Assembly: GCA_963719225.1 (NCBI GenBank)
Contig: CAVRAY010000001.1
Coordinates: 1,728,001-1,792,000 of the forward strand
Direction of reading: 5' to 3'
Origin: Thermoanaerobaculia bacterium
GTDB lineage: Bacteria > Acidobacteriota > Thermoanaerobaculia > UBA5066
DNA length: 64,000 bases
The notes beneath the pieces are model-generated. The model made no database searches, was not told the origin of the DNA, and saw nothing but the letters and a program-made list of their open reading frames with translations. Positions within the stretch are counted from its first letter, which is position 1. The number at the start of each line of letters is the position of its first letter. This document shows positions 6,291 to 55,545 of the stretch, one piece after another. A program made the position numbers and the translations under genes.

Positions 6291-6329
6291 GAGAGAGAAA
6301 GAGAAGAGAAGATTTCTTTGAAGGTGAAT
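6291..6329 (+). repeat. Dispersed AT-rich motif copy A (purine tract + GATTTCTTTGAAGGTGAAT)
   Basis: 6311-6329 matches 29129-29147 at 18 of 19 positions. Confidence 0.75.
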
Positions 6330-7805
6330 AGGACAGTGGGAAACCCACGGCGCGCGACGCGTGTTTCGGTTCTCGTCGCGCTGTGCGTCACGCTCACCTG
6401 CGCGGCGCCGACGGCCCCCGCCGCGGAGGCGCGTCACGCGCCTTCCAAGCATAAATCTTCGGCTTCTTCGGTCGATACCCTCGTCACAGCGGCCCACGTC
6501 CTGACGATGGATGGAACTGATCACGTCTTTTCCCCCGGTGCCGTCGCCATCAAGGGCGGCAGGATCGTCGCCGTCGGCTCGCCGTCGGAGCTGTCGGCTC
6601 TTTATTCTCCGAAGCATAGAATTTCCCGTCCCCGTTCCGCCGTGCTTCCGGGCCTCGTCAACACGCACACGCACGCCGCGATGAACCTCCTGCGCGGCAT
6701 CGCGGACGATCTGCCTCTCATGGACTGGCTCACGAAGTTCATCTTTCCTGCGGAGGCGAAGAACGTTTCGCCCGGCTTCGTGAAGGCCGGAACGCTCCTC
6801 GCCTGTGCGGAGATGATCCGCGGCGGTACCACGACGTTTGCGGACATGTACTACTACGAGTCGGACGTCGCGGCAGCCGTGGACACCTGCGGGATGCGCG
6901 CCGTCCTGGGAGAGACGTGGCTCGACTTTCCCGTGCCCGACCACAAGGATCTCGCCGAATCGATCACGGTGACCCGCGCCTTCCTCGAGAGGTGGAAGGG
7001 TCACCCGCGTATCATCGCGGCCGTCGCCCCGCACGCGGCGTATACGAACGCGAAGGAGTCTTTCCAGGCCGCGAAGGCGCTCGCCGACGAGTTCCACGCC
7101 CCGCTTCTCATTCACCTTTCCGAAACGCGGGACGAGCAGAGGCAGCTCGCCGGGAAGTACGGGACCACGCCCACGAACTGGCTCGACTCGATCGGCTTCC
7201 TGGGTCCGAACGTCCTCGCGGCTCACTGCGTCTGGTGCGACGCGGACGACCTCCGCCTCCTTTCCGAGCGGCACGTCGGCCTCTCGCACAACCCGGAATC
7301 AAACATGAAGCTCGGGTCCGGCGTCGCGCCCGTCGCGGCGGCTCGGCGTGTCGGCATCGCGGTCGGCCTCGGGACGGACGGCGTCGCGGGCTCGAACAAC
7401 GACCTCGACATGTGGGAAGCGATGGACTTCGCCGGGAAGCTCGCGAAGGTCTCTGCGATGGACCCGACGGTGCTGCCGGCGAAGGACGTCCTCCGGATGG
7501 CGACGATCGAGGGCGCGCGGGCGATGAAGCTGGACGACCGCATCGGCTCGCTGGAGAGAGGGAAGCGAGCGGATCTCGCGGCCGTGGACCTCGTTCGGGC
7601 GGGGACGCAGCCCGTGTGGGACCTGTTCTCGACGCTCGTCTCCGTCGTCAAGGAAAGTGACGTCTCGCTCACGATGGTGGAAGGCCGCGTCCTCTGGAAC
7701 GGCAAACGCGTCACGTCCCTCGACGAGGCGAAGGTCATCCGGAACGCCGAAACGTGGCGGAAAAGAATCGCGGCGTCGCTCGCGTCGCCCACCGCGGCGA
7801 AATGA
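6318..7805 (+). CDS. Amidohydrolase, MTA/SAH deaminase (MtaD)-like, with signal-peptide-like N-terminus; exact start uncertain (TTG 6318 or GTG 6336)
   Basis: PGLVNTHTH, GTTTFADMY, IHLSET, SHNPESNMKLGSG, GLGTDG. Confidence 0.85.
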   Translation: MKVNRTVGNPRRATRVSVLVALCVTLTCAAPTAPAAEARHAPSKHKSSASSVDTLVTAAHVLTMDGTDHVFSPGAVAIKGGRIVAVGSPSELSALYSPKHRISRPRSAVLPGLVNTHTHAAMNLLRGIADDLPLMDWLTKFIFPAEAKNVSPGFVKAGTLLACAEMIRGGTTTFADMYYYESDVAAAVDTCGMRAVLGETWLDFPVPDHKDLAESITVTRAFLERWKGHPRIIAAVAPHAAYTNAKESFQAAKALADEFHAPLLIHLSETRDEQRQLAGKYGTTPTNWLDSIGFLGPNVLAAHCVWCDADDLRLLSERHVGLSHNPESNMKLGSGVAPVAAARRVGIAVGLGTDGVAGSNNDLDMWEAMDFAGKLAKVSAMDPTVLPAKDVLRMATIEGARAMKLDDRIGSLERGKRADLAAVDLVRAGTQPVWDLFSTLVSVVKESDVSLTMVEGRVLWNGKRVTSLDEAKVIRNAETWRKRIAASLASPTAAK

Positions 7806-9112
7806 GCCTCTTCGTCCGTACGATCGTGAAGAAGCGCGACGGCGGCGAACTGTCGGAAGGCGAGATCGGCGCCTTCGTCTCCGGCGTCACGGATGGAACG
7901 ATCACGGACGAGCAGGCGGCCGCGTTCCTGATGGCGGTGTGCTGCCGGGGCATGACGACCGCCGAGTCGGCCGCTTTGACGTTCGCAATGATGAAATCGG
8001 GCGAGACCTGGGACCTTTCGCGCCACGGCTTCGTCGCGGACAAGCACTCGACGGGGGGCGTGGGCGACAAGGCGACGCTCGTCCTCGCGCCGCTTCTCGC
8101 GGCCGTGGGCGTCAAGGCCGGGATGATGTCGGGGCGCGGCCTCGGGCACACCGGCGGCACGCTCGACAAGCTCGAGGCGATTCCCGGGTTCAAGACGGCC
8201 CTTCCGAAGGCGGATTTCGACCGGCTCCTCGATACCGTGGGGTGCGCGCTCATCGGCCAGACCGACTCGATCGCTCCCGCCGATCGCCGCCTCTACGCGC
8301 TGCGCGACGTGACGGGGACCGTGGAATCGATACCTCTCATCACGGCCTCGATCCTCTCCAAGAAGCTCGCGACCGGGGCTTCCGCCGTCGTCTTCGACGT
8401 GAAGACGGGGAACGGCGCGTTCATGTCCGACCCCCGGGATGCGAAGAGGCTGGGCTCGGCTCTCGTCGAGACGACGCGGGCGACGGGCCGCAAGGCCTCG
8501 GGCTACCTCACGGCGATGGACCGCCCTCTGGGCGAGGCCGTCGGGAACGCGAACGAGGTCGAGGAGTCGATCCGCATGCTCGGCGGCGAAGGGCCGGCCG
8601 ACCTGCGTGAGAACACGCTCCTCCTGGGCGCGGACCTCGTTCTCGCCGCTGGTCTGGAGACGAGCGCGAAGGAGGCCCGCCGGCGGCTGAATGCCGCCCT
8701 CTCCGACGGCCGGGCCCTGGAAGTTTTTCGGAAGCTCATCGCGGCGCAGGGCGGGGACGCGGGAGTCTGCGACGACCCGAAGAGACTCCCGCAGCCCGTC
8801 TCCCGCAGGGACGTCCCGGCGCCCGCCTCGGGAGTGGTCACCCGCATTGAGACGCGGGAAGTCGGGCTTCTCGCGATCGAGCTCGGCTGCGGGCGTACGA
8901 AGAAGGACGACGTCATCGACCCCGCGTCGGGATTTCGGGTGAAGAAGAAGCCCGGCGACGCCGTGGAGAAAGGCGAGCCCCTCCTCGTCGTCGAGCTCGG
9001 CCCGAACGCGAAACCAAACCCCACGTTCTACGACCGCCTCGCGGCGTGCTTCACGATCGCGCCGGCCGGTACTGTCGTCGAGTCGCTGCCCTTCGTCGTC
9101 GGGACGCTCTGA
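7802..9112 (+). CDS. pdp: Thymidine / pyrimidine-nucleoside phosphorylase
   Basis: DKHSTGGVGDK, MSGRGLGHTGGTLDKLE, SILSKKLA, DVKTGNGAFM; ATGA overlap. Confidence 0.93.
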   Translation: MSLFVRTIVKKRDGGELSEGEIGAFVSGVTDGTITDEQAAAFLMAVCCRGMTTAESAALTFAMMKSGETWDLSRHGFVADKHSTGGVGDKATLVLAPLLAAVGVKAGMMSGRGLGHTGGTLDKLEAIPGFKTALPKADFDRLLDTVGCALIGQTDSIAPADRRLYALRDVTGTVESIPLITASILSKKLATGASAVVFDVKTGNGAFMSDPRDAKRLGSALVETTRATGRKASGYLTAMDRPLGEAVGNANEVEESIRMLGGEGPADLRENTLLLGADLVLAAGLETSAKEARRRLNAALSDGRALEVFRKLIAAQGGDAGVCDDPKRLPQPVSRRDVPAPASGVVTRIETREVGLLAIELGCGRTKKDDVIDPASGFRVKKKPGDAVEKGEPLLVVELGPNAKPNPTFYDRLAACFTIAPAGTVVESLPFVVGTL

Positions 9113-9684: not shown

Positions 9685-9712
9685 GCGAAACCGTTCGGGC
9701 GCAACCGGAGAG

Positions 9713-10357: not shown

Positions 10358-10446
10358 GGCGTTGTTCCGATTATCGGAGGGAGAAGGCAGGTTTATCCCA
10401 CGAATTCGGAAGGACTCGATAGGGGGCGCGGAACGACCTTCCTGCC

Positions 10447-10974: not shown

Positions 10975-10998
10975 TGCGGGATTAGACTTGTTCCCAAC

Positions 10999-13575
10999 TT
11001 GACGCTCGCTCCCGGCTCGAAGCTCGGCCCGTACGAAGTCGTCTCGCTTCTCGGCGCGGGCGGAATGGGTGAAGTCTGGAAGGCTCGTGACGCGCGACTC
11101 GGAAGAGAAGTCGCGATCAAGGTCCTGCCGGAAAATTTCTTGGAAGGTGAAGAGAGAAAGCAGCGCTTCGAGCGCGAGGCGAAGCTGTTGGCGAGCCTGA
11201 ATCATCCCGGAATCGCAACTCTCTACTCATTCGAAGAAATCCCCGGTTCTCCCGGTTCTCCTCCCCGGCACATCCTCGTCATGGAGCTTCTCGAAGGCGA
11301 GACGCTGCGCGAGCGGCTGCGAGCGGGGCCGCTGCCGCCGCGCAGAGCCGTCGACTTGGCCGTCCAGATGGCGAAGGCCCTCGCTGCGGCGCACGAGAAT
11401 GCAATCGTCCACCGGGATCTGAAGCCCGAGAACGTTTTCCTGACGAAGGACAGCCGGGTCAAGATCCTGGACTTCGGTCTCGCGAAGCTCACGCGGCGGG
11501 AAGCAGCGGTGGAGAAGCTCACGGAGGCCGGGACGCTGTCCGTCCTGACCGACGCGGGCGCGGTGTTCGGGACGGCGGGTTACATGTCTCCGGAGCAGGT
11601 TCGCGGCGAGCCTGTGGACGCCCGCTCGGACATCTTCAGCTTCGGCACGATCGTCTACGAGATGCTTTCCGGAAAGAACCCGTTCCGGGCGGCCACGACA
11701 GCCGAGACGATGACGGCCATCCTCAAGGAGGACCCGCCCGAGATTAGCGCGAGCCAGCCGAGCGCTTCTCCGGCGCTGGAGCGGATCGCCCGCCGGTGTC
11801 TGGAAAAGAACGCCGAGCAGCGTTTCCAGTCGGCGCGCGACGTGGGCTTCGCGCTCGAGGCGCTTTCGGGCTCCGCTTCCAAGGACACTGTCGCGGCTCC
11901 GAACAAAGCAGGCGGGTTCCTGCCGCGGCGTCCTTTCGCGGTCTTGGCCGCGAGCGTGTTGCTGGCTGCGGCGCTCGGTTTCCTGGGCGGCAAGGAGTTC
12001 ATGCCCTCGGCACTCCCGACCTTCAAGCGCCTCACGTTCCGACGGGGCTCGAACCAGTCCGCCCGGTTCGCGCCCGACGGGCAGACGGTCGTCTATGGCG
12101 CGGCGTGGGACGGCGGGCCGATTCGGGCCTACTCCACGGGCCTGAGCGGCCCCGAGTCGCGGCCGCTGGACCTCCCGAACGCCGACGTCGTGGCGGTCTC
12201 TCGCTCGGGCGAGCTCGCCATCCTCCTGAACCGGAATGACGGGGGTGTTCCCTTGAACACGGGCACCCTCGCGCGCGTGCCGCTCGCAGGCGGCGCCCCC
12301 CGCGAGCTCCTCCGGAATGTCTATGACGCGGACTGGTCTCCCGACGGGAAGGAGCTCGCCGTAGTGCGGCGTGACGGAACCCTCAGTCAGCTCGAGTTTC
12401 CGATCGGGACCATGCTCTACCGAGGCGCGTTTTACCGTGCCCGTGTCTCCCCGGACGGGAAACTCGTGGCCTTCCTGGAGAACGCAGTCGGCCTCTGCGT
12501 CGTGGACCGAGCGGGCAAGAAGCGGCAGCTCACCGATTGGCGCATGCGGTTTCCCATCGGCGGCGTCGCGTGGTCGCCGAAGGGCGACGAGGTCTGGTAC
12601 GCGGGGAGCGAGGGCATCGGCGACTCCCTCTACGCCGTTACGCTTTCGGGGAAGCAGCGGGTCGTGGCTCGCTTCCCTTCCTTTGCCGTCCTCCAGGACA
12701 TCTCGCCGGGCGGCCGCGTCCTCGTCACGCTCGGCGAGCTGCGGAGCGGGATCATCGGGCTTCCCCCGGGAGAAACCCGTGAGCGCGATCTGTCCTGGCT
12801 CGACTATCCCAGTATCGTGGTCCTCTCGAAAGACGGGACGACACTCCTCTTCCACGAGTCGGGGGAGGGAGTCCGTGGCACAAGGACACTCTATCTCCGG
12901 CGGACCGACGGGCTCTCGCCGCCTGTAAGGCTCGGCGAGGGGTCTGGAGAGGCCCTTTCGGATGACTTGAAGTGGGTGCTCGCGATGCGGAAGGGTGTCA
13001 AGGCGGAATGGCTTCTCTGGCCCACGGGAGCCGGGGAATCGAGGGTCGTCCGCGGGTCGGACCTCGAGCTCGAAGGGGGAGAATTCTTCCCCGACGGCAA
13101 ACGGCTCCTCCTGGAGGGCCGGCAGCCGGGGCGGCCCGCGAGGCTGTTCGTCATGGACCTTCCAGATGGAGAGCCGCGCCCGCTCACGCCTGAAGGCATC
13201 GTTTTTCTCAACGGACAGGCAGGGGTCTCTCCCGATGGTCGGTCCGTCGCGGCGAAGGGCCCCAACGGAGAGATCCTCATTTTCGGCGCGGACGGTGGAG
13301 AGCCCCGGACACTTCCGGGCCCTTGGGAATCCCGGGTTGGCCCGTGGAGCGCGGACGGGCGATCGTTTTACGTGTCGGAGCGCCAGGGGACTGTCATCAA
13401 GGTATTCCGGCGAGACCTCGCGAGCGGCCGCCGGGAGCCCGTCCGGGAAATCACCCCCTCCGATCCGGCCGGCGTTTTCGCGATTACCTCGCTCCTTTCC
13501 CAGGACGGGGCGTCCTACGTGTATGCCTACTGGCGCCACCTCTCGAACCTCTACGTCGTTGACGGGTTGAAATAG
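10999..13575 (+). CDS. Ser/Thr protein kinase with TM helix and TolB/PD40-like beta-propeller
   Basis: GAGGMG, VAIK, HRDLKPEN, DFG, YMSPEQ; TM at about aa 310-330; repeated (W/F)SPDG. Confidence 0.92.
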   Translation: MTLAPGSKLGPYEVVSLLGAGGMGEVWKARDARLGREVAIKVLPENFLEGEERKQRFEREAKLLASLNHPGIATLYSFEEIPGSPGSPPRHILVMELLEGETLRERLRAGPLPPRRAVDLAVQMAKALAAAHENAIVHRDLKPENVFLTKDSRVKILDFGLAKLTRREAAVEKLTEAGTLSVLTDAGAVFGTAGYMSPEQVRGEPVDARSDIFSFGTIVYEMLSGKNPFRAATTAETMTAILKEDPPEISASQPSASPALERIARRCLEKNAEQRFQSARDVGFALEALSGSASKDTVAAPNKAGGFLPRRPFAVLAASVLLAAALGFLGGKEFMPSALPTFKRLTFRRGSNQSARFAPDGQTVVYGAAWDGGPIRAYSTGLSGPESRPLDLPNADVVAVSRSGELAILLNRNDGGVPLNTGTLARVPLAGGAPRELLRNVYDADWSPDGKELAVVRRDGTLSQLEFPIGTMLYRGAFYRARVSPDGKLVAFLENAVGLCVVDRAGKKRQLTDWRMRFPIGGVAWSPKGDEVWYAGSEGIGDSLYAVTLSGKQRVVARFPSFAVLQDISPGGRVLVTLGELRSGIIGLPPGETRERDLSWLDYPSIVVLSKDGTTLLFHESGEGVRGTRTLYLRRTDGLSPPVRLGEGSGEALSDDLKWVLAMRKGVKAEWLLWPTGAGESRVVRGSDLELEGGEFFPDGKRLLLEGRQPGRPARLFVMDLPDGEPRPLTPEGIVFLNGQAGVSPDGRSVAAKGPNGEILIFGADGGEPRTLPGPWESRVGPWSADGRSFYVSERQGTVIKVFRRDLASGRREPVREITPSDPAGVFAITSLLSQDGASYVYAYWRHLSNLYVVDGLK
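11131..11242. repeat. Convergent pair of dispersed motif copies inside the kinase gene
   Basis: ATTTCTTGGAAGGTGAA (+, 11135-11151) is identical to 29130-29146; CATTCGAAGAAATCC (11228-11242, motif on minus strand) is identical to 51169-51183. Confidence 0.75.
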
Positions 13576-14130: not shown

Positions 14131-14142
14131 CGAAGCCTCCTC

Positions 14143-19992: not shown

Positions 19993-22086
19993 GTGCTGTA
20001 CCGGCTCGAAAACGTCAGGAAAAGCTTCGGGACGAAGGACGTCCTCGTGGATGCGACGTGGCAGCACGATCCGGGGCGAATCGTGGGCCTCGTGGGGCGG
20101 AACGGCGCGGGGAAGTCGACCGTCCTGAAGATCGTTCAGGGCCTCGTGGAGCCCGACGGCGGCAAGCTGTATGTGGCGGGTGGAACGACCTTTGCCTCGC
20201 TGGACCAGGCGGTCGAGCCGGAAGGCTACGAGCCTCTCCGCACTTTCGTCGCGCGCGCGCAGGAGCCTCTTCTCGCGTTCGAGCGCGAGATGAGGCGCCT
20301 GGAGGAGGCCATCGCCACGCACGGGGCCGACGGCGACCGCGCCGCGCTCGACGCGCTCCTCGGCGAGCACGACGAGGTGCGCGAGCATTTCCAGCGCGCG
20401 GGCGGCTACGAGGCGGACGCCCGCGTGGACCGGGTGCTCATGGGCGTCGGCCTCGTGCGGGCGATGTGGGACCGGCCCGTGGGAGAGCTCTCGGGCGGCC
20501 AGAAACATCGTGCCCAGATCGCACGGCTTCTGCTGACGGACGCTTCGGTTCTCCTCCTCGACGAGCCCACGAACCACCTCGACGTGGACGGAATCGAGTT
20601 CCTCGAGAGCTGGCTCGTGGAGCGGAAGACGAGCACCGGCCTCTCGGCTCTCGTGGTCTCGCACGACCGCCGCTTTCTGGATGCCGTCGCGGACCGCATC
20701 GTCGAGGTCGCGCACGGCCGTCTCGAGGACTATCCGGGCGACTACGCCACGTACCGCAAGCTCAAGGCCGAGCGCGAGCGTCTCCGCGCGAAGGAGGCCG
20801 AGAAACAGCGGCAGATGATCGAGCGGACCGAGGAGTTCATTCGCCGCAACATCGCCGGACAGAAGACGAAACAGGCCCAGGGGCGACGGAAGATGCTGGC
20901 GCGGATCGAGAGGATCGAGGCGCCGCGGGAGGATGCGAACGAAGTCTCGATCCGCTTCGAGGAGGCGCGCGTCTCCGGAGGGCGCGTGCTCGAGGCGAAG
21001 AAGCTCGTGCCGGGCTACCGCGAGACGGGACCGCTCCTCGAGCCGGTATCGTTCCTCCTGCGCCGCGGGGACCGCCTCGCGCTCTGGGGGCCGAACGGCT
21101 GCGGCAAGACGACGCTCCTCAAGACGCTCGCACGCGTGCTGCCTCCGATCTCCGGCTCGGCAGTGCCGGGCACGGGCGTCCTCATCGGCTACTACGACCA
21201 GGAGATGGGAGATCTTCCGGTCGAGGCGACGGCGCTCGACGCCGTGATGGACCTCGACCCTACGATGAAGGAGAGCGAAGCCCGCGACTTCCTCGCGCTC
21301 TTCGACTTCCGCGGGGACGAGGTCTTCCAGAAGATCGCGACGCTCTCGGGCGGCGAGAAGGGGCGCCTCTCGCTCGCTCGCATCGTCTTCGGCGGGGCGA
21401 ACTTCCTGCTCCTGGACGAGCCCACGAACCACCTCGACCTCGACGCGCGCGAGCAGCTCGAGGACGCCCTGGAAGCGTTCGAGGGCGCGATCGTCTTCGT
21501 GAGCCACGACCGCTGGTTCGTGGACCGCATCGCGACACAGATGCTGGAAATTCGGGACGGGAAGGCCGAGCTCCACGAAGGTAACTACTCGGATCTCGTC
21601 AGGAGGAAGAAGGAGATTCTTGCTCCCTCGCAGGACGATTCGGCGGGGCGCGACGACCTACAGTGGGGCAGGGGAGACGCGGTCTTTTCTTCGAAGGGTA
21701 AGAAAGACAAAGATAAAGATTCTTCGAAGGGTAAGAAGGGTAAGGGCGGCTCGGCGGGAGCCGCCGCAGCGAAGCCCGGCACCGCGCCTCATCCCTCTTC
21801 CCCCTCTAAGAAATCTTCCTCTTCTTCTCCGGACCGGACCGCCGAGAGGCGGCGTCTGAAGAACCAGAGAATCCTCGCCGACCTCGAAGACTCGATCACG
21901 CGCCTCGAGGAGGAGATCCGGTCGCTCGATCTCTCCCTCGCCAACCCCGACGTCTTCCGCGACGGAGACAAGGTCCGGCAGGTGAAATCGGCACGCGAGC
22001 AGGCGCGCCGGACACTCGAGGCGAAGCTGTGGGAATGGGAGGAGACGTCTCGCAAGCTCCAGACGGGCGCGGAAGTGCCGGCGTGA
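19993..22086 (+). CDS. ABC-F family ATPase with C-terminal coiled coil
   Basis: Two ABC cassettes (GRNGAGKS/LSGGQ, GPNGCGKT/LSGGE), two LLDEPTNHLD; no TM. Confidence 0.92.
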   Translation: MLYRLENVRKSFGTKDVLVDATWQHDPGRIVGLVGRNGAGKSTVLKIVQGLVEPDGGKLYVAGGTTFASLDQAVEPEGYEPLRTFVARAQEPLLAFEREMRRLEEAIATHGADGDRAALDALLGEHDEVREHFQRAGGYEADARVDRVLMGVGLVRAMWDRPVGELSGGQKHRAQIARLLLTDASVLLLDEPTNHLDVDGIEFLESWLVERKTSTGLSALVVSHDRRFLDAVADRIVEVAHGRLEDYPGDYATYRKLKAERERLRAKEAEKQRQMIERTEEFIRRNIAGQKTKQAQGRRKMLARIERIEAPREDANEVSIRFEEARVSGGRVLEAKKLVPGYRETGPLLEPVSFLLRRGDRLALWGPNGCGKTTLLKTLARVLPPISGSAVPGTGVLIGYYDQEMGDLPVEATALDAVMDLDPTMKESEARDFLALFDFRGDEVFQKIATLSGGEKGRLSLARIVFGGANFLLLDEPTNHLDLDAREQLEDALEAFEGAIVFVSHDRWFVDRIATQMLEIRDGKAELHEGNYSDLVRRKKEILAPSQDDSAGRDDLQWGRGDAVFSSKGKKDKDKDSSKGKKGKGGSAGAAAAKPGTAPHPSSPSKKSSSSSPDRTAERRRLKNQRILADLEDSITRLEEEIRSLDLSLANPDVFRDGDKVRQVKSAREQARRTLEAKLWEWEETSRKLQTGAEVPA
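21685..21830. repeat. Three dispersed motif copies inside the ABC-F linker (two direct, one inverted)
   Basis: TTCTTCGAAGGGTAAGAA at 21687-21704 and 21720-21737; TCTAAGAAATCTT at 21805-21817 is identical to 54821-54833. Confidence 0.75.
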
Positions 22087-27954: not shown

Positions 27955-28760
27955 TCGAGTTCCTGGGCTATCCGTTCTTCCAGCGGGCTCTTCTCGCCGG
28001 AGCCCTGACCGGGCTTCTCTGCGGCGCGCTGTCGTTTTTCGTCGTGCTCCGGCGCCTGGCCTTCGTCGGCTCGGGAGTCGCGCACGCGGCGTTCGGCGGC
28101 GTGGCGCTCGGGACGCTCCTCGGATGGCCCCCGGGCCTTTGCGGCCTCGCCGTTTCGCTCGGAGTGGCGGGCGCGACGGCCCGGGCCTCCGAGTCGTCCG
28201 GCGTGACCGAGGACACGGCGGTCGGCGTCTTCACCGTGGCCGCCATGGCGGGGGGCGTCGTCGCGCTCGGCTTCGTGAAGACGAACGTCGATCTTTTCGG
28301 CCTGATGTTCGGCAACATCCTGACGGTCGACCCGGCAGACCTCCTGCTCCTCGCCGGCGCTGCCACGGTCATCCTCGTGGCGCTCGCATTCTTCTTCCGG
28401 CCGCTCCTTCTCGCGTCCGTCGACGAGGAGGGGGCGCGCGTCGCCGGCGTCGCCACGGGCGCGATGCGGCTTCTCGTCCTCACGTTCGTCGCCGTCGCGG
28501 TCGTGGCGGCCCTGAAGGTCGTCGGAATCCTTCTCGTCTCCGCGCTCCTCGTCCTCCCGGGCGCCACGGCGCGCCCGCTCGCGAGCCGTTGGCCGGGCTT
28601 TCTGGGCGGCTCGATCGCCGTGGCACTCATCTCGGTTCTCGGAGGGCTGCTCCTTTCCGTGGCGCTCGACATCGCCTCCGGCGCCGCGATCATCCTGCTC
28701 GGAACGTGCCTCTTCGTCGCGGCGCTCGCCGTTGCGCGGCTCCGCGCGCGACATGTGTAA
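27951..28760 (+). CDS. Zn/Mn ABC transporter permease (ZnuB-like)
   Basis: FFQRALLAG, GVAHAAFGG, LMFGNIL, VGILLVSALL. Confidence 0.9.
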   Translation: MIEFLGYPFFQRALLAGALTGLLCGALSFFVVLRRLAFVGSGVAHAAFGGVALGTLLGWPPGLCGLAVSLGVAGATARASESSGVTEDTAVGVFTVAAMAGGVVALGFVKTNVDLFGLMFGNILTVDPADLLLLAGAATVILVALAFFFRPLLLASVDEEGARVAGVATGAMRLLVLTFVAVAVVAALKVVGILLVSALLVLPGATARPLASRWPGFLGGSIAVALISVLGGLLLSVALDIASGAAIILLGTCLFVAALAVARLRARHV

Positions 28761-29110: not shown

Positions 29111-29164
29111 TCACCCTCGTAAAGAAAAGATTTCTTGGAAGGTGAATCCCGCCGGACGGCGGGA
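29111..29164 (+). promoter_or_regulatory. Structured leader before the TonB receptor, containing a dispersed motif copy (29129-29147) and a GC hairpin (29147-29164)
   Basis: TCACC/GGTGA and AAGAAA/TTTCTT can pair; TCCCGCC-GGAC-GGCGGGA hairpin. Confidence 0.45.
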
Positions 29165-29224: not shown

Positions 29225-31663
29225 ATGTCCATTCCCGGCACGGCGCGAAGCGCCGCAGCATTTCTTCTCTTTCTCGGCTTTTCCCTGACTCTTTCGCGGC
29301 CGCTATCCGCCGCGTCGGCCGCGGGTGGACAGATCCGCGGTCACGTAACCGGTCCGGACGGCAAACCGCTCCCGGGCGTCACGATCGTCCTCGCGAACGA
29401 CATCACCGGATACCGGCTGCAGGTTACGTCCGGGGGTGACGGAAGCTATCTTCTCTACAACGTGCCCCCGAATCCCTATCACCTCACGGCGGCTCTCCAG
29501 GGTTTCGCCCCGTTCCACACCGACGTGGACGTCCGCGGGAGCATCCCCGTGACGCGCGAGATCTCGCTCGGGATCACAGCGACGGCTGCGGAGTCCGTGA
29601 CGGCCGAGAAGGAGTCGGTCGAGCTGGAAACCGACACCTCGACGACGCACATCGACATCGACAAGTCCCTGATCCGCCGCGCACCCGCGCCGGTCGCATC
29701 CCGGGCGTTCGAGTCGCTCGTGACGTCGACGCCTGGCTTCTCGCAGGACGAGAACGGCCGCTACCATTTTCAGGGCAGCCACTCGCAGCAGCTCCTCGTC
29801 GTGGACGGCCAGCCGATCGGCGACATGATCGGCGTCACCTTTTCCAACTCGCTCGATCCCGCTGTGGCCGAAAGCATCGAGATCGTCACAGGAGGCATTC
29901 CGGCCGAGTATGGAGAGAAGGCGAACGGCGTCATCAACCTGACGACGCGCTCCGGTCTCGGGAGCGGATCCTTCAAGGGGGACGTCGGTATCGGTGCGGC
30001 GCGCTTCTCGACGTACGAGGGCGCCGCAGGCGTCGGGGGAGGGACGTCGCGGTTCGGCTGGTTCGTCAACCTCGATGCCTCGAAGTCCGACCGTTTCCTG
30101 GACCCGGTTTCGTTCGACAACTTCCACAACGAGGGGAACACCGAGCGCGCATTTCTCAGGCTCGATTCCGTTTCCGAAGGCGGCTCGGACTCGTTCCGCC
30201 TGACCGGCAACGTCGGCCGGACGGTCCGCGACGTGACGAACCTGCCCTCACAAGAGGAGGCAGGCCAGGACCAGAGCGTCCTCTCCCACGACTGGAACTT
30301 CAACCTCGGCTATCAAAAGGTGCTTTCGGGCAGCCTCGTCCTCGAGGCGCAGGTCTACGCCCGGGACAACCGTCTGACACTCTATTCGTCCTCGAACGAC
30401 ACTCCGGTCACAGCCGACCAGAACCGGTCTTTGGAGAATCAGGGGATCAACCTCGCTCTCTCGAAGCAGGCCGGCGCGCACGAGCTGAAGGTGGGCATAC
30501 AGGCCAAACGTTTTCCGATCAAAGAGCAGTTCTCCTTCGGGATCACGGATCCCTCCTTCAACGACCCCGACTCCGAAAGCTACAACCCGAATCTCGCGCC
30601 TTACGACCTGACGCGCGGCGGAACGCGATTCAACTTCTCCGGATCGCGTACCGGTACGTACGTCGCGGGCTACATCCAGGACAACATCCGCTGGAACGAC
30701 CTGACGATCAACGCCGGCGTCCGCTTCGACCGAAACGACGTCTTCGAGACGGAGAACGAGCTCCAGCCGCGAATCGGGCTGGCGTACTTCCTGAGATCGA
30801 CCAGCACGGTCTTCCGGGCCTCGTACAACCGCATGCTCATCACGCCGGAGTACGAGAACATCCTGCTCTCCTCCTCGGCGGAGGCCGCGAGGGTCGCGCC
30901 TCCCGAGATCCAGGAATCACGCGAGCTCGGCGGCGGCTTCCTTACGAATCCCTCCGAGCGCCACGACGCTTTCAACGTCGGGATCCAGCAGGGAATCGGC
31001 AGCAAGCTGAGGCTCGACCTGTCGTACTGGTACCGGTCGGTGAAGAACCCGGCCGACCAGGCCCAGTTCTTCAATACCGGCATCGTCTTTCCGGTCAACT
31101 TCGCGAGCGGCCAGTTCCGCGGCTGGAATGCACGCCTCGACCTGGCCCCTGTCCTCGGCGGCCTGCGTGGTTACGTTTCCGTGGGGCACGTCGAATCGAA
31201 GTACTGCAATCCGGCGATCGGCGGGCTCTTCGTCGACCCGGAGGCCTTCGAGTCCCTCGCGGGAGGGTGCTTCATCATCGATCACGACCAGGACATCCAG
31301 CAGCAAGCCGGGTTCTTCTGGGACTTCGGCCAGTCCGGCTTCTGGGCCGGCGTCACGCAGCGCTACGACTCCGGCCTCGTGACCGACGCCGGCGCACCCG
31401 AGGACGTCCTGTCGTCGCCCGACACCGCCTATGCCGATCCGTTCCTGAGGTACGACGAGGACCCGCAGCGCGTCAAGTCACGCACGATTTGGAACTTCTC
31501 CCTGGGCGCGCGCCTGCAGAAATACGGCGTCCCGCTCGAGCTCCAAGTCGACCTTCTCAACGCATTCGACAAACAGGGTCTCTACAACTTCCAGTCGCCC
31601 TTCGGCGGCACGCACGTAATTCCGCCGCGGACGCTCGCGGGACGGGTCAAGTTCGTGTTCTAG
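29225..31663 (+). CDS. TonB-dependent receptor with N-terminal carboxypeptidase-regulatory-like domain
   Basis: GGAGG RBS, signal peptide, IRGHVTGPDGKPLPGVTI, GGIPAEYG, C-terminal KFVF. Confidence 0.88.
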   Translation: MSIPGTARSAAAFLLFLGFSLTLSRPLSAASAAGGQIRGHVTGPDGKPLPGVTIVLANDITGYRLQVTSGGDGSYLLYNVPPNPYHLTAALQGFAPFHTDVDVRGSIPVTREISLGITATAAESVTAEKESVELETDTSTTHIDIDKSLIRRAPAPVASRAFESLVTSTPGFSQDENGRYHFQGSHSQQLLVVDGQPIGDMIGVTFSNSLDPAVAESIEIVTGGIPAEYGEKANGVINLTTRSGLGSGSFKGDVGIGAARFSTYEGAAGVGGGTSRFGWFVNLDASKSDRFLDPVSFDNFHNEGNTERAFLRLDSVSEGGSDSFRLTGNVGRTVRDVTNLPSQEEAGQDQSVLSHDWNFNLGYQKVLSGSLVLEAQVYARDNRLTLYSSSNDTPVTADQNRSLENQGINLALSKQAGAHELKVGIQAKRFPIKEQFSFGITDPSFNDPDSESYNPNLAPYDLTRGGTRFNFSGSRTGTYVAGYIQDNIRWNDLTINAGVRFDRNDVFETENELQPRIGLAYFLRSTSTVFRASYNRMLITPEYENILLSSSAEAARVAPPEIQESRELGGGFLTNPSERHDAFNVGIQQGIGSKLRLDLSYWYRSVKNPADQAQFFNTGIVFPVNFASGQFRGWNARLDLAPVLGGLRGYVSVGHVESKYCNPAIGGLFVDPEAFESLAGGCFIIDHDQDIQQQAGFFWDFGQSGFWAGVTQRYDSGLVTDAGAPEDVLSSPDTAYADPFLRYDEDPQRVKSRTIWNFSLGARLQKYGVPLELQVDLLNAFDKQGLYNFQSPFGGTHVIPPRTLAGRVKFVF

Positions 31664-34108: not shown

Positions 34109-34123
34109 CCTGCAGAGCCCGGC

Positions 34124-39724: not shown

Positions 39725-39726
39725 GG

Positions 39727-42456: not shown

Positions 42457-42540
42457 GAAGTTCCTCCGGCAGTCCTGGCACACATCGACGCGATGAAGAT
42501 TACGGCGGGCACGGGAAAAAGTTGCTAGGATTCGCGGCAG

Positions 42541-43155: not shown

Positions 43156-43171
43156 GGGCTAGGGAGAGACC

Positions 43172-43759: not shown

Positions 43760-43795
43760 ACGGCGTTTCGTGGTCGAGGGCTGCCCGGCGCGGGG

Positions 43796-44776: not shown

Positions 44777-44834
44777 GTGGGGATCCTACGGGATCTCGCT
44801 TGGCAACTTCACCTCTTCTTCCTATGCTCCGGGC

Positions 44835-45803: not shown

Positions 45804-45805
45804 GC

Positions 45806-47325: not shown

Positions 47326-47343
47326 GGCCCCTATACTCCGCGC

Positions 47344-49271: not shown

Positions 49272-50007
49272 TTCCGGCCCTCTTCACTTTCTAAGCAGAA
49301 TTCTCTTTCTTTGTCTTATCTCCTCCTCCGTGTCTCGGGCCGAGGATCCCGCGGCGCTGCTGCGGCGCGCCGAGCGCATCAAGGATGCCTGGCCGGAGGT
49401 CGTCATCACGCTGCGCGTGACGACGACGCAGGCCGGCGCGCCGCCGGCCACCGGGATCTTCTCGGTCGAGGCGAAAGGCCGCGACAAGTCGCGCATCCGC
49501 TTTCAGAATCCTTCCGACGCCGGCAAGTCCGTCGTCCAGGTCGGTGACGACGTCTGGCTCGTCCTGCCGAACACGAAGAATCCGATCCGTGTGCCGAAGA
49601 GCCATCGCCTGAGAGGCGGATTCTCGGCGGCCGACATGGCGCGCACGCGGTTCGTGGACGACTACGACCCGGTTCTGGAGCGGACCGACGTGCTGAACGG
49701 CATGAGCTGCGCCGTCCTTCGTCTCACGGCGAGAGCGGGGAAGCATCCCTCGTATCCGATTGTGCGCGTCTGGATCGACGAGAAGGAAGCGCTCTACCGC
49801 AAGGCGGTTTTCCTCGTCTCGTCGGGAAAGACCGCGCGGGAGACCACGTTCGACGCGTACCGTCCGTTCCACGGCATCCTCTCGCTCGCGAAGATGACGA
49901 TCGTGGATACGCTCCGGACGGGCACGACGGTCGTCGAGTACCTCGACTACGAGAAGAAGAGTCTTCCGGACTCGACGTTCGAGGTCAGGACGGCCCCGCC
50001 GGCTTGA
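49264..50007 (+). CDS. LolA-like outer membrane lipoprotein-sorting protein
   Basis: Signal-like N-terminus; KSRIRFQNPSDAG, GGFSAADM, RVWID; operon context. Confidence 0.75.
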   Translation: MFDSGPLHFLSRILFLCLISSSVSRAEDPAALLRRAERIKDAWPEVVITLRVTTTQAGAPPATGIFSVEAKGRDKSRIRFQNPSDAGKSVVQVGDDVWLVLPNTKNPIRVPKSHRLRGGFSAADMARTRFVDDYDPVLERTDVLNGMSCAVLRLTARAGKHPSYPIVRVWIDEKEALYRKAVFLVSSGKTARETTFDAYRPFHGILSLAKMTIVDTLRTGTTVVEYLDYEKKSLPDSTFEVRTAPPA

Positions 50008-51877
50008 CGGCGAGCCACCGCGCGAACCACCTCACGAGAGTCACGTTCGAGCGGATGCGATTCGGGAGCTTCTGGAAGCCGTGGCCCTCGTCCGGGAAGA
50101 GGACGTACTCGACGGGAATGCCCCGCTTCTTCAGGCTCGCGGCGACCTGCTCGGCCTCGATGACGGGAACGTTCGTGTCGTTCGCGCCGTGGAGGATGAG
50201 CGTGGGCGTCTTGACGCGGTCGATCCTCGTGAGCGGCGAGAGCCTGTCGAGCATTTCGCCCTCGGTGTCCGGATCTCCGTACTCGATCTTCGAGATCGCG
50301 GCCATCCAGGCTTCCGTATGCTCGAAGAACGTCTTGAAGTTCACGACGCCGAAGAGGTCGACGCCGGCCGCGAACATGTCCGGGTAATCGGCCAGCCCGG
50401 CCATCGTCATGTAGCCGCCATAAGAGCCGCCCATGATCCCGAGGCGTTTCGGGTCGGCGACGCCGGCCTTCACGACCGCATCCACGCAGGAGACGATGTC
50501 CTTGACGGCGTTCGCGCGCAGCGCGCCGTTGTCGAGGTTCACGAAACGCTTCCCGAAGCCCGCCGAGCCGCGGACATTCGGCGCGAAGACGGCAATGCCT
50601 TGCGAGACGAGCGCCTGGTAATCACTTCGAAAAGACGGTACCTCCTGCCCCTCGGGCCCTCCGTGGAAGGACAGGACGACGGGACCTGGGCCCTTCGAGC
50701 CCTTCGGCCGATAGAGCCATCCGGAGAGCGGCTCGCCGTCGTGAGCCTTGAATCTGAGCAGCTCGGGAGAGACGAGAGAGGAAAGATCGACGCCCGGGTG
50801 GGGGCTCTCGGTGAGGCGGGTGAAGCGCGGAGAAGAGGAAGAGATTTCTTCGAGTAGGAAGATGTCGGACGGCGCCGTCGCGCTCGACACGGTCATCGCG
50901 AGCGTCTTGCCGTCGCGCGACCACGTCAGGCCGGACGCGAGATCTCCGGGCAGCTTCGGCCCCGAACGCATTTCCTTTCTAAGCAAATCTTCAAACGCCA
51001 GTTCATGGCGCCCCGCCACGTTCCAGATGAGCGCGGCCTTCTCTCCCTTTTCGTCGATCGCAAACGACGCGAGCTCCGCATCCTCCCGCGCCGCGACGAT
51101 CTCGATCGGACCGGGGACGCCGGCATCGGACACGGCGATCCGCGCGAAGGCGAGCCTGTCCCGATTTCCATTCGAAGAAATCCAGAGGACCTTTCCGTCC
51201 GGAGAGAACACACCCGAATAGGTTCCCGGGCCTTCATGCGGCGTGAGGAGCATCTCCTTCTTCGTCGCGAGATCCACGAGAAAGAGGTCGTTGCTGCCGC
51301 GGTAGCGTAGGCGATTGAGGAGGGCGCGCTTTCCGTCGCGCGACAGATCCTCGAAGCCGCCGATGCCCGGGTTCGTGACGACGAGCTCGAGCGCTCCGGT
51401 GTCGGGATCGTAGAGGTAGGCGTCGATGGCTGCGCCCATTCGCCGATTCGAGCCCAGGGCGAGCTTCCGGCCGTCGTGACGAAAGCCGCCGAGGCGGTTC
51501 GTCTCCTTGCCGCCATCCGTGAGGCGCTCGAGGCCCGTGCCGTCGGGGCGCACGAGGTACACCTGCGTGTTCATGCCGCCGCCGGGTGCGAGGGTGAACG
51601 CAATCCACTTGCCGTCCGGCGACCATTCGACCCCGCCGACGGGATCGTCGGACGACGTGACCATGCGAGGGAACCCGCCCTTCGCCGGCACGGTCCACAC
51701 CTGCGGCAGTCCGCTGAGATTCGAGACGAAGGCGATCGTGCTCCCATCGGGGGAGAAGCTCGGCGAGCGCGAGAAGCCGACCCGCGACATGCGCGAGACC
51801 GCGGTCTCGAGGTCGTCGGCGGCGAGGGGGAACACGGCGAGGGCGGCAGCGGCGGCGAGGAGCATCTTGAATTGCAT
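49985..51877 (-). CDS. S9 prolyl oligopeptidase family peptidase, exported
   Basis: HGGPE, GGSYGGY, HGANDTNVP, DEGHG; N-terminal propeller. Confidence 0.92.
   Translation of the reverse strand: MQFKMLLAAAAALAVFPLAADDLETAVSRMSRVGFSRSPSFSPDGSTIAFVSNLSGLPQVWTVPAKGGFPRMVTSSDDPVGGVEWSPDGKWIAFTLAPGGGMNTQVYLVRPDGTGLERLTDGGKETNRLGGFRHDGRKLALGSNRRMGAAIDAYLYDPDTGALELVVTNPGIGGFEDLSRDGKRALLNRLRYRGSNDLFLVDLATKKEMLLTPHEGPGTYSGVFSPDGKVLWISSNGNRDRLAFARIAVSDAGVPGPIEIVAAREDAELASFAIDEKGEKAALIWNVAGRHELAFEDLLRKEMRSGPKLPGDLASGLTWSRDGKTLAMTVSSATAPSDIFLLEEISSSSPRFTRLTESPHPGVDLSSLVSPELLRFKAHDGEPLSGWLYRPKGSKGPGPVVLSFHGGPEGQEVPSFRSDYQALVSQGIAVFAPNVRGSAGFGKRFVNLDNGALRANAVKDIVSCVDAVVKAGVADPKRLGIMGGSYGGYMTMAGLADYPDMFAAGVDLFGVVNFKTFFEHTEAWMAAISKIEYGDPDTEGEMLDRLSPLTRIDRVKTPTLILHGANDTNVPVIEAEQVAASLKKRGIPVEYVLFPDEGHGFQKLPNRIRSNVTLVRWFARWLAVKPAGPS
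50831..51183. repeat. Three dispersed motif copies in the S9 peptidase gene
   Basis: GATTTCTTCGAG (+, 50843); CTTTCTAAGCA (50975-50985) is identical to 49287-49297; CATTCGAAGAAATCC (51169-51183). Confidence 0.7.
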
Positions 51878-51990
51878 TGCCGCAATGTTATGCCGAGGTC
51901 AGCCGGCTGGCGGTCGAGCGGGCGAACGCGCCGAAGGCGGCGCCTTGGGGCCGAGTCGGAATCGACGCGCAGACCTCGGCGATCTCGGCA

Positions 51991-52878: not shown

Positions 52879-52891
52879 GTCCCGAGCGCTT

Positions 52892-54370
52892 TCATCGACG
52901 GGAACGCGGCGTCGCGCTCCTGTTGCCCGACATCAGCGCGACGTAGATGCCGCCCGCCGCGAAGAAGCCCACGAACCAGGCGTAGTCGTAGAGGGGCTTC
53001 AGCGGCGGGATCACGAGGCCGCCCCACGCAAGGAAGCAGCCGGCGAATGTCGCGACGACCGCGGGAGCATTCCAGCCGCCGTATGCGCCGTCCTTCAGGT
53101 AGAGCGCCTTGAGGTCGAGGGTCTTCTTCCGCACGATCCAGTAGTCGGCGATCAGGACCCCCGCGATCGAGCCGAGGCCTCCCGAGTAACCGAGCAGCCA
53201 CGTGAAGATATAGCCCTTCGGGTCGGCGAGGAGGCGCCACGGCTGCATGGCGATGCCGAGGAGACCGGTGATGAGGCCGCCCGTCTTGAAGCTGATGTAG
53301 CGGGGGAGGGCGTTCGCGAAGTCGTTCGCGGGCGAGACGACGTTCGCGGCGATGTTGACGGCCAGCGTCGCGACGACGACGGAGAACATCGCGACCGCCA
53401 CGACGAGCGGGTTCGTGAATTTCCCGACGAGCTTGACGGGATCCCAGATCGCCTCGCCGAAGATGATCGCGCTCGCGCTCGTGATGAGGACGCCCATCGC
53501 CGCGAACGCGAACATCGTCGTGGGCAACGCGACGGCCTGGCCGACGACCTGCTCTCTCTGGCTCCGGCCGAAGCGCGTGAAGTCCGGCATGTTGAGCGAA
53601 AGCGTGGCCCAGAAGCCGATCATCGCCGTGAGCGAGGGGATGAAGACGGGGAAGAACGCGCGGAACGTCCGGAATTTTCCGGGCTGGGCGAGGAGCGGCC
53701 CGAGCCCGTTCGCCTTGTTCACGGCCCACACGAGCAGGACGATCGTCACAACGAGGACGTAGGGGGCGGCCCAGTTCTCGACCTTGCGGAGGAGGTCCAT
53801 GCCCCGGTAGATGACGAAGATGTTCAGACCCCAGAAGAGAAGGAACGAGAGCCATTCCGTGGTCGTGTGGCCGGAAAACCCGGAGCCCAGGAGCGTGGGC
53901 CAGCCCGGGAAGACCGCGGCGAAGAAGGTGTAGAGAGCCTCCCCGCCGATCCAGGTCTGGATCCCGAACCAGCCGCAGGCGACGAGGGCGCGCATGAGCG
54001 CCGGCAGGTTCGAGCCCGCGGTGCCGTAGGCGGCGCGCGCGAAGACCGGGAATGGGATGCCGTATTTCGTACCGGGGTGGGAGTTCAGGAGGATCGGCAC
54101 GAGAACGATCGTGTTGCCGAGGAGGATCGTGAAGAGCGCCTGCTTCCAGTCCATCCCGCTGTTCATGAGGCCCGAGGCCAGCATGTACGTCGGGATGCAG
54201 TGCGCCATCGAGATCCACAGCGCGGCGTAGTTGTAGGTCGTCCACGTTCGGCGGGCGACCGGAACGGGCGCGAGATCGTCGTTGTAGAGCGGGCTCCGGG
54301 CGATCGCGGACGTATCCGCGAGCTCGACGCGGCCGTCCGCGTGGGCGATCTCGCCGGTCCCCGCGCTCAT
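52892..54370 (-). CDS. NCS1 nucleobase:cation symporter
   Basis: LYNDDLAP, WISMAHCIPTY, GFWATLSLNMPDFTRF, NIAANVVSPANDF. Confidence 0.92.
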   Translation of the reverse strand: MSAGTGEIAHADGRVELADTSAIARSPLYNDDLAPVPVARRTWTTYNYAALWISMAHCIPTYMLASGLMNSGMDWKQALFTILLGNTIVLVPILLNSHPGTKYGIPFPVFARAAYGTAGSNLPALMRALVACGWFGIQTWIGGEALYTFFAAVFPGWPTLLGSGFSGHTTTEWLSFLLFWGLNIFVIYRGMDLLRKVENWAAPYVLVVTIVLLVWAVNKANGLGPLLAQPGKFRTFRAFFPVFIPSLTAMIGFWATLSLNMPDFTRFGRSQREQVVGQAVALPTTMFAFAAMGVLITSASAIIFGEAIWDPVKLVGKFTNPLVVAVAMFSVVVATLAVNIAANVVSPANDFANALPRYISFKTGGLITGLLGIAMQPWRLLADPKGYIFTWLLGYSGGLGSIAGVLIADYWIVRKKTLDLKALYLKDGAYGGWNAPAVVATFAGCFLAWGGLVIPPLKPLYDYAWFVGFFAAGGIYVALMSGNRSATPRSRR

Positions 54371-54396
54371 GAGGTGCCGGAATGGTAACCCGGGTG

Positions 54397-55530
54397 CTAG
54401 CGCCTGGGGGGAGCGAGCGCGCCGAGGGCGGGCCTTTCCGCGATCATCTTCGAAAGGGCGAGCCCTCCGGCGCGAAGAGCGTCGGGCGAGCCGGGACGTG
54501 CGGCGAGCAAGGCGCCGGCGTCCCCTTCGATCGCGCTGTACGTGTCGGCCGCCACCAGGCCAAGCCACGGATCGGTACTCGGCGTCAGGAAGAGCTCGTC
54601 GTAGATGCGGTTCGTGAGGGCAGCGAGGTCGACAGGCCGGTTGGATCGTGAAAGCCACTGCTGGATCGTCCGCCGCAGAGAAACGTTGAGTGCCGTATCG
54701 GCGGCAAGCGACTGCTCGAAGTTGCGCACCGCGCGGGCGAAAGCGCTCGCGTCGGCGCCTCGCATCTTCACGCGCATGAGCTGGAGGCTGCTGGCGTCGA
54801 GGACGGTGCCCCTATTACCTTCTAAGAAATCTTTGGTGCTCTTCTTCCGTCCCCTCTCTATCTCTTGCAGAAACTCTCTCGGTCCCCAGAGTCCTGGCAA
54901 GACGTCGACAATGTCGGCATTGCTTGTCAGTAGGTAATGCAGGCTGTTTCCCGTGATCGTTCTCTCGAGCTTTCGCCCGTCTCCGAAGTCGATCGTGATT
55001 TTCGGTACCGGCCGAACGGATTCCCAGTGGAGAATCCAGTTGTTCCGCAGCTCGTCCGAGATCGCCGCATTCGCGTACAGCACGGTACGGAAGAAGCGGC
55101 TGTTCGCGCAGCTGAGCTCTTCGTCGAGGTTCCCGTGGAGGCGCAGGGAGAGGATCGGCTTTCCGGCTTTCGCGGCCGCGGCCTTCGCTGCGGCGAAGTC
55201 GGTGTACCAGTAGAGGCCCGACCACGCTGCGTCGCGCTGGCGCGCCACCGCGTCGAGGCCGGCCCGGAGCCGTTCCCATTCCGGCCGGAGAGGCGCCCCG
55301 GCGGCGAGGCCCTCGCGCATCGATTCGATGGCCGGGAGATTTTCTTCGAAGATGAGATTGAGGCCAGGCGGGCCCATTTCCCGGAGGCGCGCCCGCGCAG
55401 TGCCAGCGAGCGCCGGGTTCGCCAATACGGCGTCGCTTGCGAGTCGGTTTGTTTCGGAGACGGCCGCTGGCCCCGAGAGCAGTGCTGTGGTTGCCGCCAG
55501 GAGGAACGCCGTCGTCGATCTTCCCTTCAT
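54397..55530 (-). CDS. Exported protein with thioredoxin-like domain resembling the selenoprotein N C-terminus
   Basis: Signal peptide; WYTDFAAAKAAAAKAGKPILSLRLHGNLDEELSCANSRFFR. Confidence 0.65.
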   Translation of the reverse strand: MKGRSTTAFLLAATTALLSGPAAVSETNRLASDAVLANPALAGTARARLREMGPPGLNLIFEENLPAIESMREGLAAGAPLRPEWERLRAGLDAVARQRDAAWSGLYWYTDFAAAKAAAAKAGKPILSLRLHGNLDEELSCANSRFFRTVLYANAAISDELRNNWILHWESVRPVPKITIDFGDGRKLERTITGNSLHYLLTSNADIVDVLPGLWGPREFLQEIERGRKKSTKDFLEGNRGTVLDASSLQLMRVKMRGADASAFARAVRNFEQSLAADTALNVSLRRTIQQWLSRSNRPVDLAALTNRIYDELFLTPSTDPWLGLVAADTYSAIEGDAGALLAARPGSPDALRAGGLALSKMIAERPALGALAPPRR

Positions 55531-55545
55531 AGAAAATCTCCCGGT
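54813..55545. repeat. Three dispersed motif copies, including a 14-bp inverted pair
   Basis: GATTTCTTAGAAGGTAAT on minus strand (54814-54831); CCGGGAGATTTTCT at 55332-55345 (+) and its reverse complement at 55531-55544. Confidence 0.7.

Follow-up and report, generated by a model that had tools for sequence, protein, structure and literature searches.

Facing copies of a word in a 64-kb window

The DNA considered here (called the window below) is a stretch of 64,000 nucleotides from a Thermoanaerobaculia bacterium (assembly GCA_963719225.1, contig CAVRAY010000001.1, positions 1,728,001 to 1,792,000). In and between genes for, among others, a putative amidohydrolase, a Ser/Thr kinase, an ABC-F protein and an S9 peptidase it contains copies of a short, AT-rich and degenerate word that is embedded in the GC-rich chromosome of this soil Acidobacterium and mostly occurs as two copies facing each other. 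The word is directional, with a purine-rich tract followed by a T-run, the core CTT-N-GAA-N-G and a purine-rich tail. It carries 26.6 bits of information across 24 positions, has a purine bias over ~35 bp and shows a 9-bp pseudo-dyad. These motif pairs are real, selected and lineage-restricted, and they fail membership of every family tested, though they overwrite genes like HIP1 or uptake sequences do.

All ten copies that a preliminary description of the window had arranged in five plus-then-minus pairs are present at the positions cited there, and the five pairs are collected in Table 1. The copy cited at 6441 is weak (10.2 bits by position weight matrix, PWM) and the other nine reach 25.6-35.4 bits. 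Two strong copies had been missed, namely 21692(+), which is a tandem outer copy, and 51174(-). For the copies at 29129, 49287 and 54814 no clear partner had been reported, and none of them has a convincing facing one, the best candidate within 400 bp scoring 9.6 bits (at a distance of 137 bp) for the first, -11.1 for the second and 10.7 bits (at 372 bp) for the third. The DNA between partners had been regarded as ordinary coding sequence. This holds for the kinase and peptidase pairs, but the pairs at 6311 and 55338 straddle likely gene starts and the one at 21720 lies in a low-complexity linker. The 14-bp inverted string shared by the partners of the last pair does not represent a rule, as partners are no more alike than random copies. 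The open reading frame (ORF) with three copies at 54397-55899 (minus strand) has no Pfam match, and the in-frame ATG under the right copy of pair 5 may be its true start. Rfam covariance models gave 0 matches at the gathering threshold within the window.

Table 1. Motif copies of the window (positions counted from its first letter, spacings centre-to-centre) and, in the last line, a repeated insertion sequence of the same genome (contig coordinates)
Feature	Position	Strand	PWM score (bits)	Spacing (bp)	Context
Pair 1, left	6307..6330	+	35.4		Between a cytidine deaminase-like gene (reading from sequence) and a likely amidohydrolase gene start
Pair 1, right (weak)	6435..6458	-	10.2	127	N-terminal part of amidohydrolase ORF
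Pair 2, left	11130..11153	+	33.9		Encodes NFLEGEE in Ser/Thr kinase
Pair 2, right	11222..11245	-	27.6	91	Spacing common to the cluster of 15 kinase paralogs; encodes SFEEIP
Secondary half-site	21608..21635	+			Purine tract and TTGCT, without the GAAGG half; ~70 bp outside the 21692 copy
Extra tandem copy	21680..21703	+	24.2
Pair 3, left	21713..21736	+	29.0		Low-complexity linker of ABC-F protein
Pair 3, right	21796..21819	-	31.3	82
Unpaired copy	29125..29148	+	30.0		Upstream of ORF 29225-31663 (Pfam CarboxypepD_reg and Plug domains)
Unpaired copy	49281..49304	-	27.9		Intergenic
Pair 4, left	50839..50862	+	26.2		Within S9 peptidase gene; outer purine tract encodes poly-Ser, its length differs among species
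Pair 4, right	50969..50992	-	31.9	129
Extra tandem copy	51163..51186	-	23.3		Same S9 peptidase gene
Unpaired copy	54812..54835	-	33.1		Encodes DFLEGN in ORF 54397-55899(-)
Pair 5, left	55335..55358	+	29.8		In ORF 54397-55899(-)
Pair 5, right	55518..55541	-	25.6	182	Overlaps in-frame ATG of ORF 54397-55899(-)
1,337-bp insertion sequence	C1:766 kb, 1349 kb, 2034 kb, 2195 kb, 2505 kb, 3739 kb, 3786 kb; C2:92 kb, 423 kb

Orientation, spacing and taxonomic range of the pairs

The genome to which the window belongs comprises 4.75 Mb with 68% GC in two contigs (C1 and C2), and 4,095 genes were called by our own prediction. With a PWM trained on this genome and a threshold of at least 16 bits 867 motif copies were found versus 29 positions in an order-5 Markov null. 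Numbers for C2 are less reliable than those for C1 since this contig looks partly chimeric, with a duplicated tmRNA and similar segments (regions concerned: ~130-230 kb vs 600-700 kb, 500-600 kb and 800-872 kb). Two stretches of C2 are without motif copies; a reverse transcriptase gene lies in one of the two.

Among neighbours within 300 bp (n=363), 276 are convergent (+/-), 11 divergent (-/+) and 76 tandem, so the convergent order known from the window is in strong excess over the whole genome (binomial p 2e-67 against divergent order) and random orientation is not seen. A facing copy of at least 10 bits at a distance of 40-300 bp exists for 78.3% of 725 strong copies, versus 2.8% in the divergent control and 4.4% in an interval 1 kb away. 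By homology of the inner DNA the 276 convergent pairs collapse to 253 non-redundant ones with a median spacing of 107 bp and a mode of 73-75 bp. Spacings of 60-260 bp were found in 235 of them and shorter ones in 14; the distribution is non-exponential with a floor near 60 bp. The range of 85-190 bp taken from the window covers 142 of the 253 pairs, but the actual range is wider and the mode shorter. A spike at 91 bp is due to a single cluster of 15 kinase paralogs. The region C1:2.29-2.32 Mb harbours a tandem array of at least nine Ser/Thr kinase paralogs, each with a 91-bp motif pair, and kinases of genus g234 carry it too. In a scan of all GTDB species for spacings of 56-86 bp, 35 of the 80 listed loci have a spacing of 72-75 bp. 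A comb of ~30 bp, noticed post hoc in the window's own genome (pointwise p 0.001-0.006), recurred in the first independent set (n=51/24; p 0.004/0.02, and 0.04/0.03 after re-clustering) and failed to show up in the 11 pairs added last (p 0.66). With a global p of 0.07-0.11 and a best period that moves to 25 bp it is suggestive only, and it is neither established nor claimed here.

An exact 14-mer of the motif was found in 24 of 24 genomes of the same genus and in 0 of 16 sister-family genomes, and a 12-mer gave 0-4 matches in 397 other genomes of the phylum. Relaxed, the 12-mer matches at 93-303 places per genome in 13 members of the same genus, at 40 in genome G540 and at 0-9 in the other 236 genomes of the class. 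Convergent core pairs number 28-153 per genome in the 28 same-genus genomes and exceed divergent ones (5-28, partly palindromic cores counted twice) in all 28; there are 1-31 in eight genomes of genus g234 and 0-5 in 26 genomes from eight other genera of the family. Of the 80 listed GTDB loci, 79 are titled Thermoanaerobaculia or Acidobacteriota and the remaining one has 43% GC; a single match occurred in 800 kb of outgroup DNA. Judged from these genomes, the motif is not class-wide but restricted to two genera within a single family of the Thermoanaerobaculia. Only the outgroup tallies include the unpublished genomes G025, G559 and G562, and no claim depends on them. Viral contigs were considered as well, with 94 matching stretches, but only 2 of these 94 loci exceed 55% GC, so the viral matches look like chance. 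A de novo hunt for some other word in pairs, which covered motif-free DNA from metagenome loci (247 kb) and outgroups (800 kb), revealed nothing convincing, at low power. The outgroup genome G040 has over-represented words of its own, of the type CCCTCTCCC / GGGTGAGGG, which stand in inverted pairs and are unrelated to the motif.

Two inverted copies flanking a short segment could form a long-range stem in RNA or single-stranded DNA, with each copy as one arm and with a nuclease, a helicase or an HUH enzyme as reader. Pairing is indeed possible between any two facing copies (mean duplex about -20 kcal/mol), sense copies cluster just past stop codons (110 within -20 to +60 bp) and the inner coding DNA folds slightly above controls (z -0.96 vs -0.42, n=43, p 0.067). 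But swapped partners pair equally well (-20.16 +/- 0.35 vs -20.39 for true partners), and partner-specific covariation is absent, the largest positive per-position z against random copies being 2.4 over 61 positions. There is no G.U asymmetry by transcript direction (382 vs 362; 73 vs 71), inner intergenic DNA folds like its controls (z -0.48 vs -0.48, n=48), and base pairing alone would not favour convergent over divergent order by such a margin. We therefore regard a stem as quite improbable.

The same geometry would fit relics of a mobile element, i.e., of a MITE (a miniature transposable element with inverted repeats), a REPIN or an RPE-like repeat with decayed inner parts. Its inverted ends with a modal length, the denser intergenic occupation, the insertion of outer flanks and sometimes whole sites relative to outgroups (see below) and the few intergenic pairs that share inner similarity fit such an origin. 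REPIN or REP doublets also consist of two inverted copies in a preferred orientation; their spacer varies, and the mode of the spacing is near 70 bp (PMC3337134; statements on this and the other cited sources refer to the available parts of their text). This reading is nevertheless largely refuted and very improbable, as the 276 pairs fall into 253 clusters, the inner DNA is unique except for the kinase paralogs as sole large homology cluster, and it encodes conserved protein cores that are colinear with outgroups, with the motif core under purifying selection. Target-site duplications are missing at the pairs (4.30 vs 4.27 +/- 0.09), no multi-copy element end in the genome exceeds 6.2 bits against the motif, and no Y1/RAYT transposase (PF01797) was found in this genome, which is 97% complete. 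The preliminary opinion that the copies are no MITE ends, as the inner DNA differs per locus, is thus corroborated. Compared with the doublets as portrayed in the available text of PMC3337134, the motif pairs are mostly intragenic, have no GC-rich palindromic core and no spacer hairpin, and their partners are not co-conserved. The genome also harbours nine or more near-identical copies of an insertion sequence of 1,337 bp (Table 1), whose inverted ends give no match to the motif.

Inverted repeats of this size that flank coding DNA within genes are furthermore the anatomy of intragenic invertons (bioRxiv 10.1101/2023.03.11.532203, available part), and five tyrosine-recombinase-like genes are present according to a motif scan (a sixth match looks spurious). 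That each pair serves as recombination site pair flipping its inner DNA is, however, hardly credible. Partners share no more identity than random copies do, the variable central base included (0.44 vs 0.37), and the inner DNA has a constant orientation in all 13 peptidase orthologs and throughout the 15 kinase paralogs. Moreover, one motif occurs at ~280 loci, and flips within tRNA-synthetase-like and ribosomal-operon genes would presumably be costly.

Overwritten genes, chromosomal gradient and base composition

Predicted coding DNA contains 595 of the 867 copies (69%; 303 sense and 292 antisense, in all frames), and 167 of the 276 pairs lie within one gene. The remaining 272 copies are intergenic at a density per kb about four times the coding density. 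As many as 59 of the 274 TTA codons of this genome are located in motif sites. In 92 partly redundant alignments with two outgroup genomes, read by eye, core codons (in kinases and several enzymes) usually replace existing codons in register without gaps, and colinearity mostly holds for the cores together with the inner DNA. Insertions are often seen in the outer purine tract, where they encode runs of Ser, Glu or Lys, and some whole sites are insertions too. Motif sites even occur in tRNA-synthetase-like genes (names read from sequence and not database calls). In the S9 peptidase both copies are retained at 129 bp in 12 of 13 orthologs while the length of the outer tract varies. In the core, 4-fold sites diverge by 0.186 (n=145), compared with 0.384 for those far away (n=170,561), and A/T letters are retained at 0.84 vs 0.16. 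As silent-site divergence is halved in the core, selection keeps the DNA word, which is by this measure itself under purifying selection. When pairs from three relatives were compared with the window's genome, 85 of 102 alignable ones had both copies (42 more did not align), and in a site-level comparison with five relatives 332 of 401 sites were kept.

Overwriting of this kind invites the comparison with uptake sequences (USS/DUS). These occur in hundreds of copies of which about two thirds fall into ORFs, where they use all frames, occupy positions of variable amino acids and reshape peptides (PMC2817400, available part). For Haemophilus a share of 65% in ORFs at poorly conserved positions is given there, which resembles both the coding share found here and the seats of the pairs in variable protein positions. 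A molecular drive is conceivable: if a step of DNA import or recombination favoured fragments that carry two facing copies, pairs would accumulate and be re-fixed without any chromosomal job. A ComEC-family gene is present in the genome (C1:1877541-1879919, with four motif copies within ~750 bp upstream), and neither the ends of the insertion sequence nor the two unusual stretches of C2 hold copies. ComEC was, however, also found in 10 of 14 control genomes and is thus not discriminating. A requirement for facing pairs inside genes is, at the level of the abstract, not described for uptake sequences. The motif differs from them in its near-obligate convergent pairing within genes, its spacing floor, its replichore gradient and its AT-shifted zone, and such a drive does not predict the gradient or the pairing-dependent zone. 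Altogether we consider it improbable.

The terminus was placed by the peak of GC skew (C1 2.05-2.1 Mb), a dif-like site (C1 2,037,570) and the location of dnaA on C2. On both arms coding motif density amounts to 0.19-0.24 per kb at up to 900 kb from the terminus and to 0.03-0.13 per kb beyond 1.2 Mb; intergenic density is noisier. Gaps between motif clusters are close to exponential (coefficient of variation 1.18). Pairs are balanced without leading-strand polarity, and unpaired copies point slightly more often away from the terminus than toward it (toward it in 40 of 106, p 0.015). The matS/MatP pair is a terminus signal system with a density rising toward the terminus, and in this respect the motif is similar. 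The same rise toward dif on both arms is known for KOPS/FtsK (PMC5357621, available part), but the motif lacks the leading-strand polarity of KOPS and is paired, and MatP was not found in the five genomes searched. The dif-like site adjoins a second ParA/ParB-like pair (C1:2037416-2039524) and is flanked by two motif pairs; as a general arrangement this was rejected, since the exact layout occurs in 0 of 62 relatives.

Around 166 isolated pairs the base composition is shifted. From 0.90 at distances beyond 120 bp, the GC content of 4-fold sites drops to 0.79-0.80 at 40-80 bp outside the pair and to 0.80-0.85 within it, with the edge of this AT-shifted zone near 95 bp outside the pair on each side. 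At 70 unpaired copies the shift is restricted to the inward side. Silent divergence is not raised in the zone (0.40-0.41), and the shift persists in arms without a detectable weak site (0.82-0.83). A half-site YTTGCT in the same orientation was found 55-95 bp outside in 30 of 466 arms of the window's genome vs 1-4 in control windows. In relatives it was detected in 6 of 286 arms and in 0 of 149 non-shared arms, with 13 of 149 vs 4-7 for a looser pattern. Outer half-sites are a minority feature, clear in this genome and weak in relatives; the PWM for them was trained on the same arms and overfits, and an expectation-maximisation run did not converge on a motif.

Candidate readers and related systems

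A modest balance of probability favours reading the facing pairs as a bipartite site at which a two-fold symmetric protein complex for DNA architecture probably docks. For a strand-symmetric word that is selected at silent sites and has no complementarity specific to its partner, the best reading is a site for a protein on double-stranded DNA, and this protein would read the duplex and bridge both copies. The near-obligate facing order together with the spacing floor suggests a two-fold symmetric complex that needs both copies, and the origin-to-terminus gradient points to chromosome organisation as its probable job. Such a complex would hold two inward-facing copies together, would loop or wrap the 60-260 bp between them and would help to organise mainly the terminus half of the chromosome; the AT-shifted zone may be its footprint or a collection of weak extra sites. 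The preliminary description had already proposed a bipartite site and, as its ligand, a dimeric, wrapping or looping protein. Its first half still is the best reading, the second half stays conjectural and has lost one variant, since the ~10.5-bp phasing is absent (p 0.24 in this genome, p 0.93 pooled) and a rigid helically phased loop is therefore unsupported. The broad unphased tail of spacings rather indicates flexible geometry.

Several observations weigh against the docking site. Besides the absence of the phasing that a tight rigid loop should show, about one fifth of the strong copies are unpaired, and the site was lost in 69 of the 401 aligned comparisons. Protein regions in which pairs are located are more variable (second-position divergence of 0.175 inside against 0.100), and the terminus gradient could reflect faster-evolving genes in that region. 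Conservation of the word is also expected from an uptake-sequence drive. Further, histone fold and Lsr2 were not found in searches, nor was MatP in 5 of 5 genomes, and a Pfam scan of 125 small conserved proteins (a subset of 300 screened, from 1,792 small soluble proteins) gave no obvious reader candidate. A second ParB was rejected as reader because it occurs in motif-free genera too (5 of 5 other family genomes tested). The reverse transcriptase, likewise considered as reader, does not track the motif.

A specific version of the docking-site explanation, which we consider unlikely, takes the family's remodelled integration host factor (IHF) as reader, alone or with a partner, with each copy forming one sharp bend. 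The genome has four HU/IHF genes, and both IHF-like subunits (C1:1862341-1862679 and C1:2066464-2066823) show a one-residue insertion right after the NPK motif of the arm tip plus an extended C-terminal tail. In IHF this arm is the one that kinks DNA (PMC5829579, available part). The insertion is present in 11 of 11 alpha and 9 of 9 beta sequences of the same genus and in 0 of 10 and 0 of 11 from sister families (one outgroup-type beta from a 2.2-kb contig of bin G011 was set aside). It is absent from the three solved-structure alignments listed, and a non-standard arm length was seen in 4 of 147 distant HU/IHF representatives; the background rate of an insertion per 88 amino acids at 60-79% identity is 69/364. 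IHF wraps ~35 bp with kinks ~9 bp apart made by arm prolines, and its sites are asymmetric, AT-rich, ~35 bp long, provided with a flexible upstream tract and present in hundreds per genome (PMC5829579 and PMC8421141, available parts), to which the ~35-bp span and the 9-bp pseudo-dyad of the motif may be compared. But the insertion is family-wide, with both subunits affected in 9 of 9 genomes of other genera, 7 of which have 0-5 motif pairs. In addition, 28 metagenome loci with other tip variants (204 kb, partly redundant) contain 0 motif copies. The site windows match the E. coli IHF consensus WATCARNNNNTTR less often than their shuffles do (13.8% vs 28.0% at up to 2 mismatches), and IHF alone gives no reason for facing pairs, which in the available parts of the two sources are not described for IHF in any systematic form. 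As the insertion but not the motif is family-wide and the sites are off the consensus, IHF would be at most permissive or one component.

A bolder extension of the docking-site reading, which we put forward tentatively and hold for rather doubtful, would see the pairs as a sequence-programmed chromatin unit of nucleosome scale. About 300 positioned two-fold symmetric particles would each cover a pair (with a preferred spacing of seven helical turns) plus ~95 bp on each side, would lie over essential coding DNA at a cost to the proteins, and would be concentrated toward the terminus, with the remodelled IHF maybe as one component.

The closest parallel in terms of overwriting besides uptake sequences is HIP1 of cyanobacteria, which is lineage-specific, hyper-abundant and selected within and between ORFs (PMC5861425, available part). 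According to the same part of that source no peptide or RNA role was found for HIP1, a role in chromosome structure was proposed and its reader is unknown. But HIP1 is an exact 8-bp palindrome with a periodicity of 10-90 kb, while the present motif is degenerate, directional and 24-35 bp long and occurs in facing pairs 60-260 bp apart, with near-random spacing of clusters and a bias to the terminus. Published descriptions of the motif were not found in the literature covered, which omits most subscription papers. HIP1, uptake sequences, KOPS and matS are high-copy motifs that overwrite coding DNA and act as single words. A signal that is retained almost exclusively as facing pair, with a minimum spacing, selection at silent codon positions and a compositional mark of ~250 bp, implies a geometry of the reader that is undescribed for those motif families. 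The motif rewrites proteins that resemble tRNA synthetases and kinases, and this system thus offers a model for the origin of a chromosome-wide DNA code and its proteome cost. Owing to its recent origin in two genera with motif-free sister genera the reader should be findable by comparative genomics and pull-down.

Some minor observations concern single loci. The reverse complement of the 16S rRNA 3' end and the start of the following spacer (C1:905530-905560) resembles the motif with 14.2 bits, which is probably coincidence; a Shine-Dalgarno effect was rejected because sense and antisense copies are equal in number. Inside a predicted permease gene of the window (28238-28329) ARAGORN called an undefined tRNA-like element that is likely spurious. 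Finally, tandem repeat units of ~870 bp rich in GTGAACCACAG are located within predicted coding sequence at C1:2497238-2499799.

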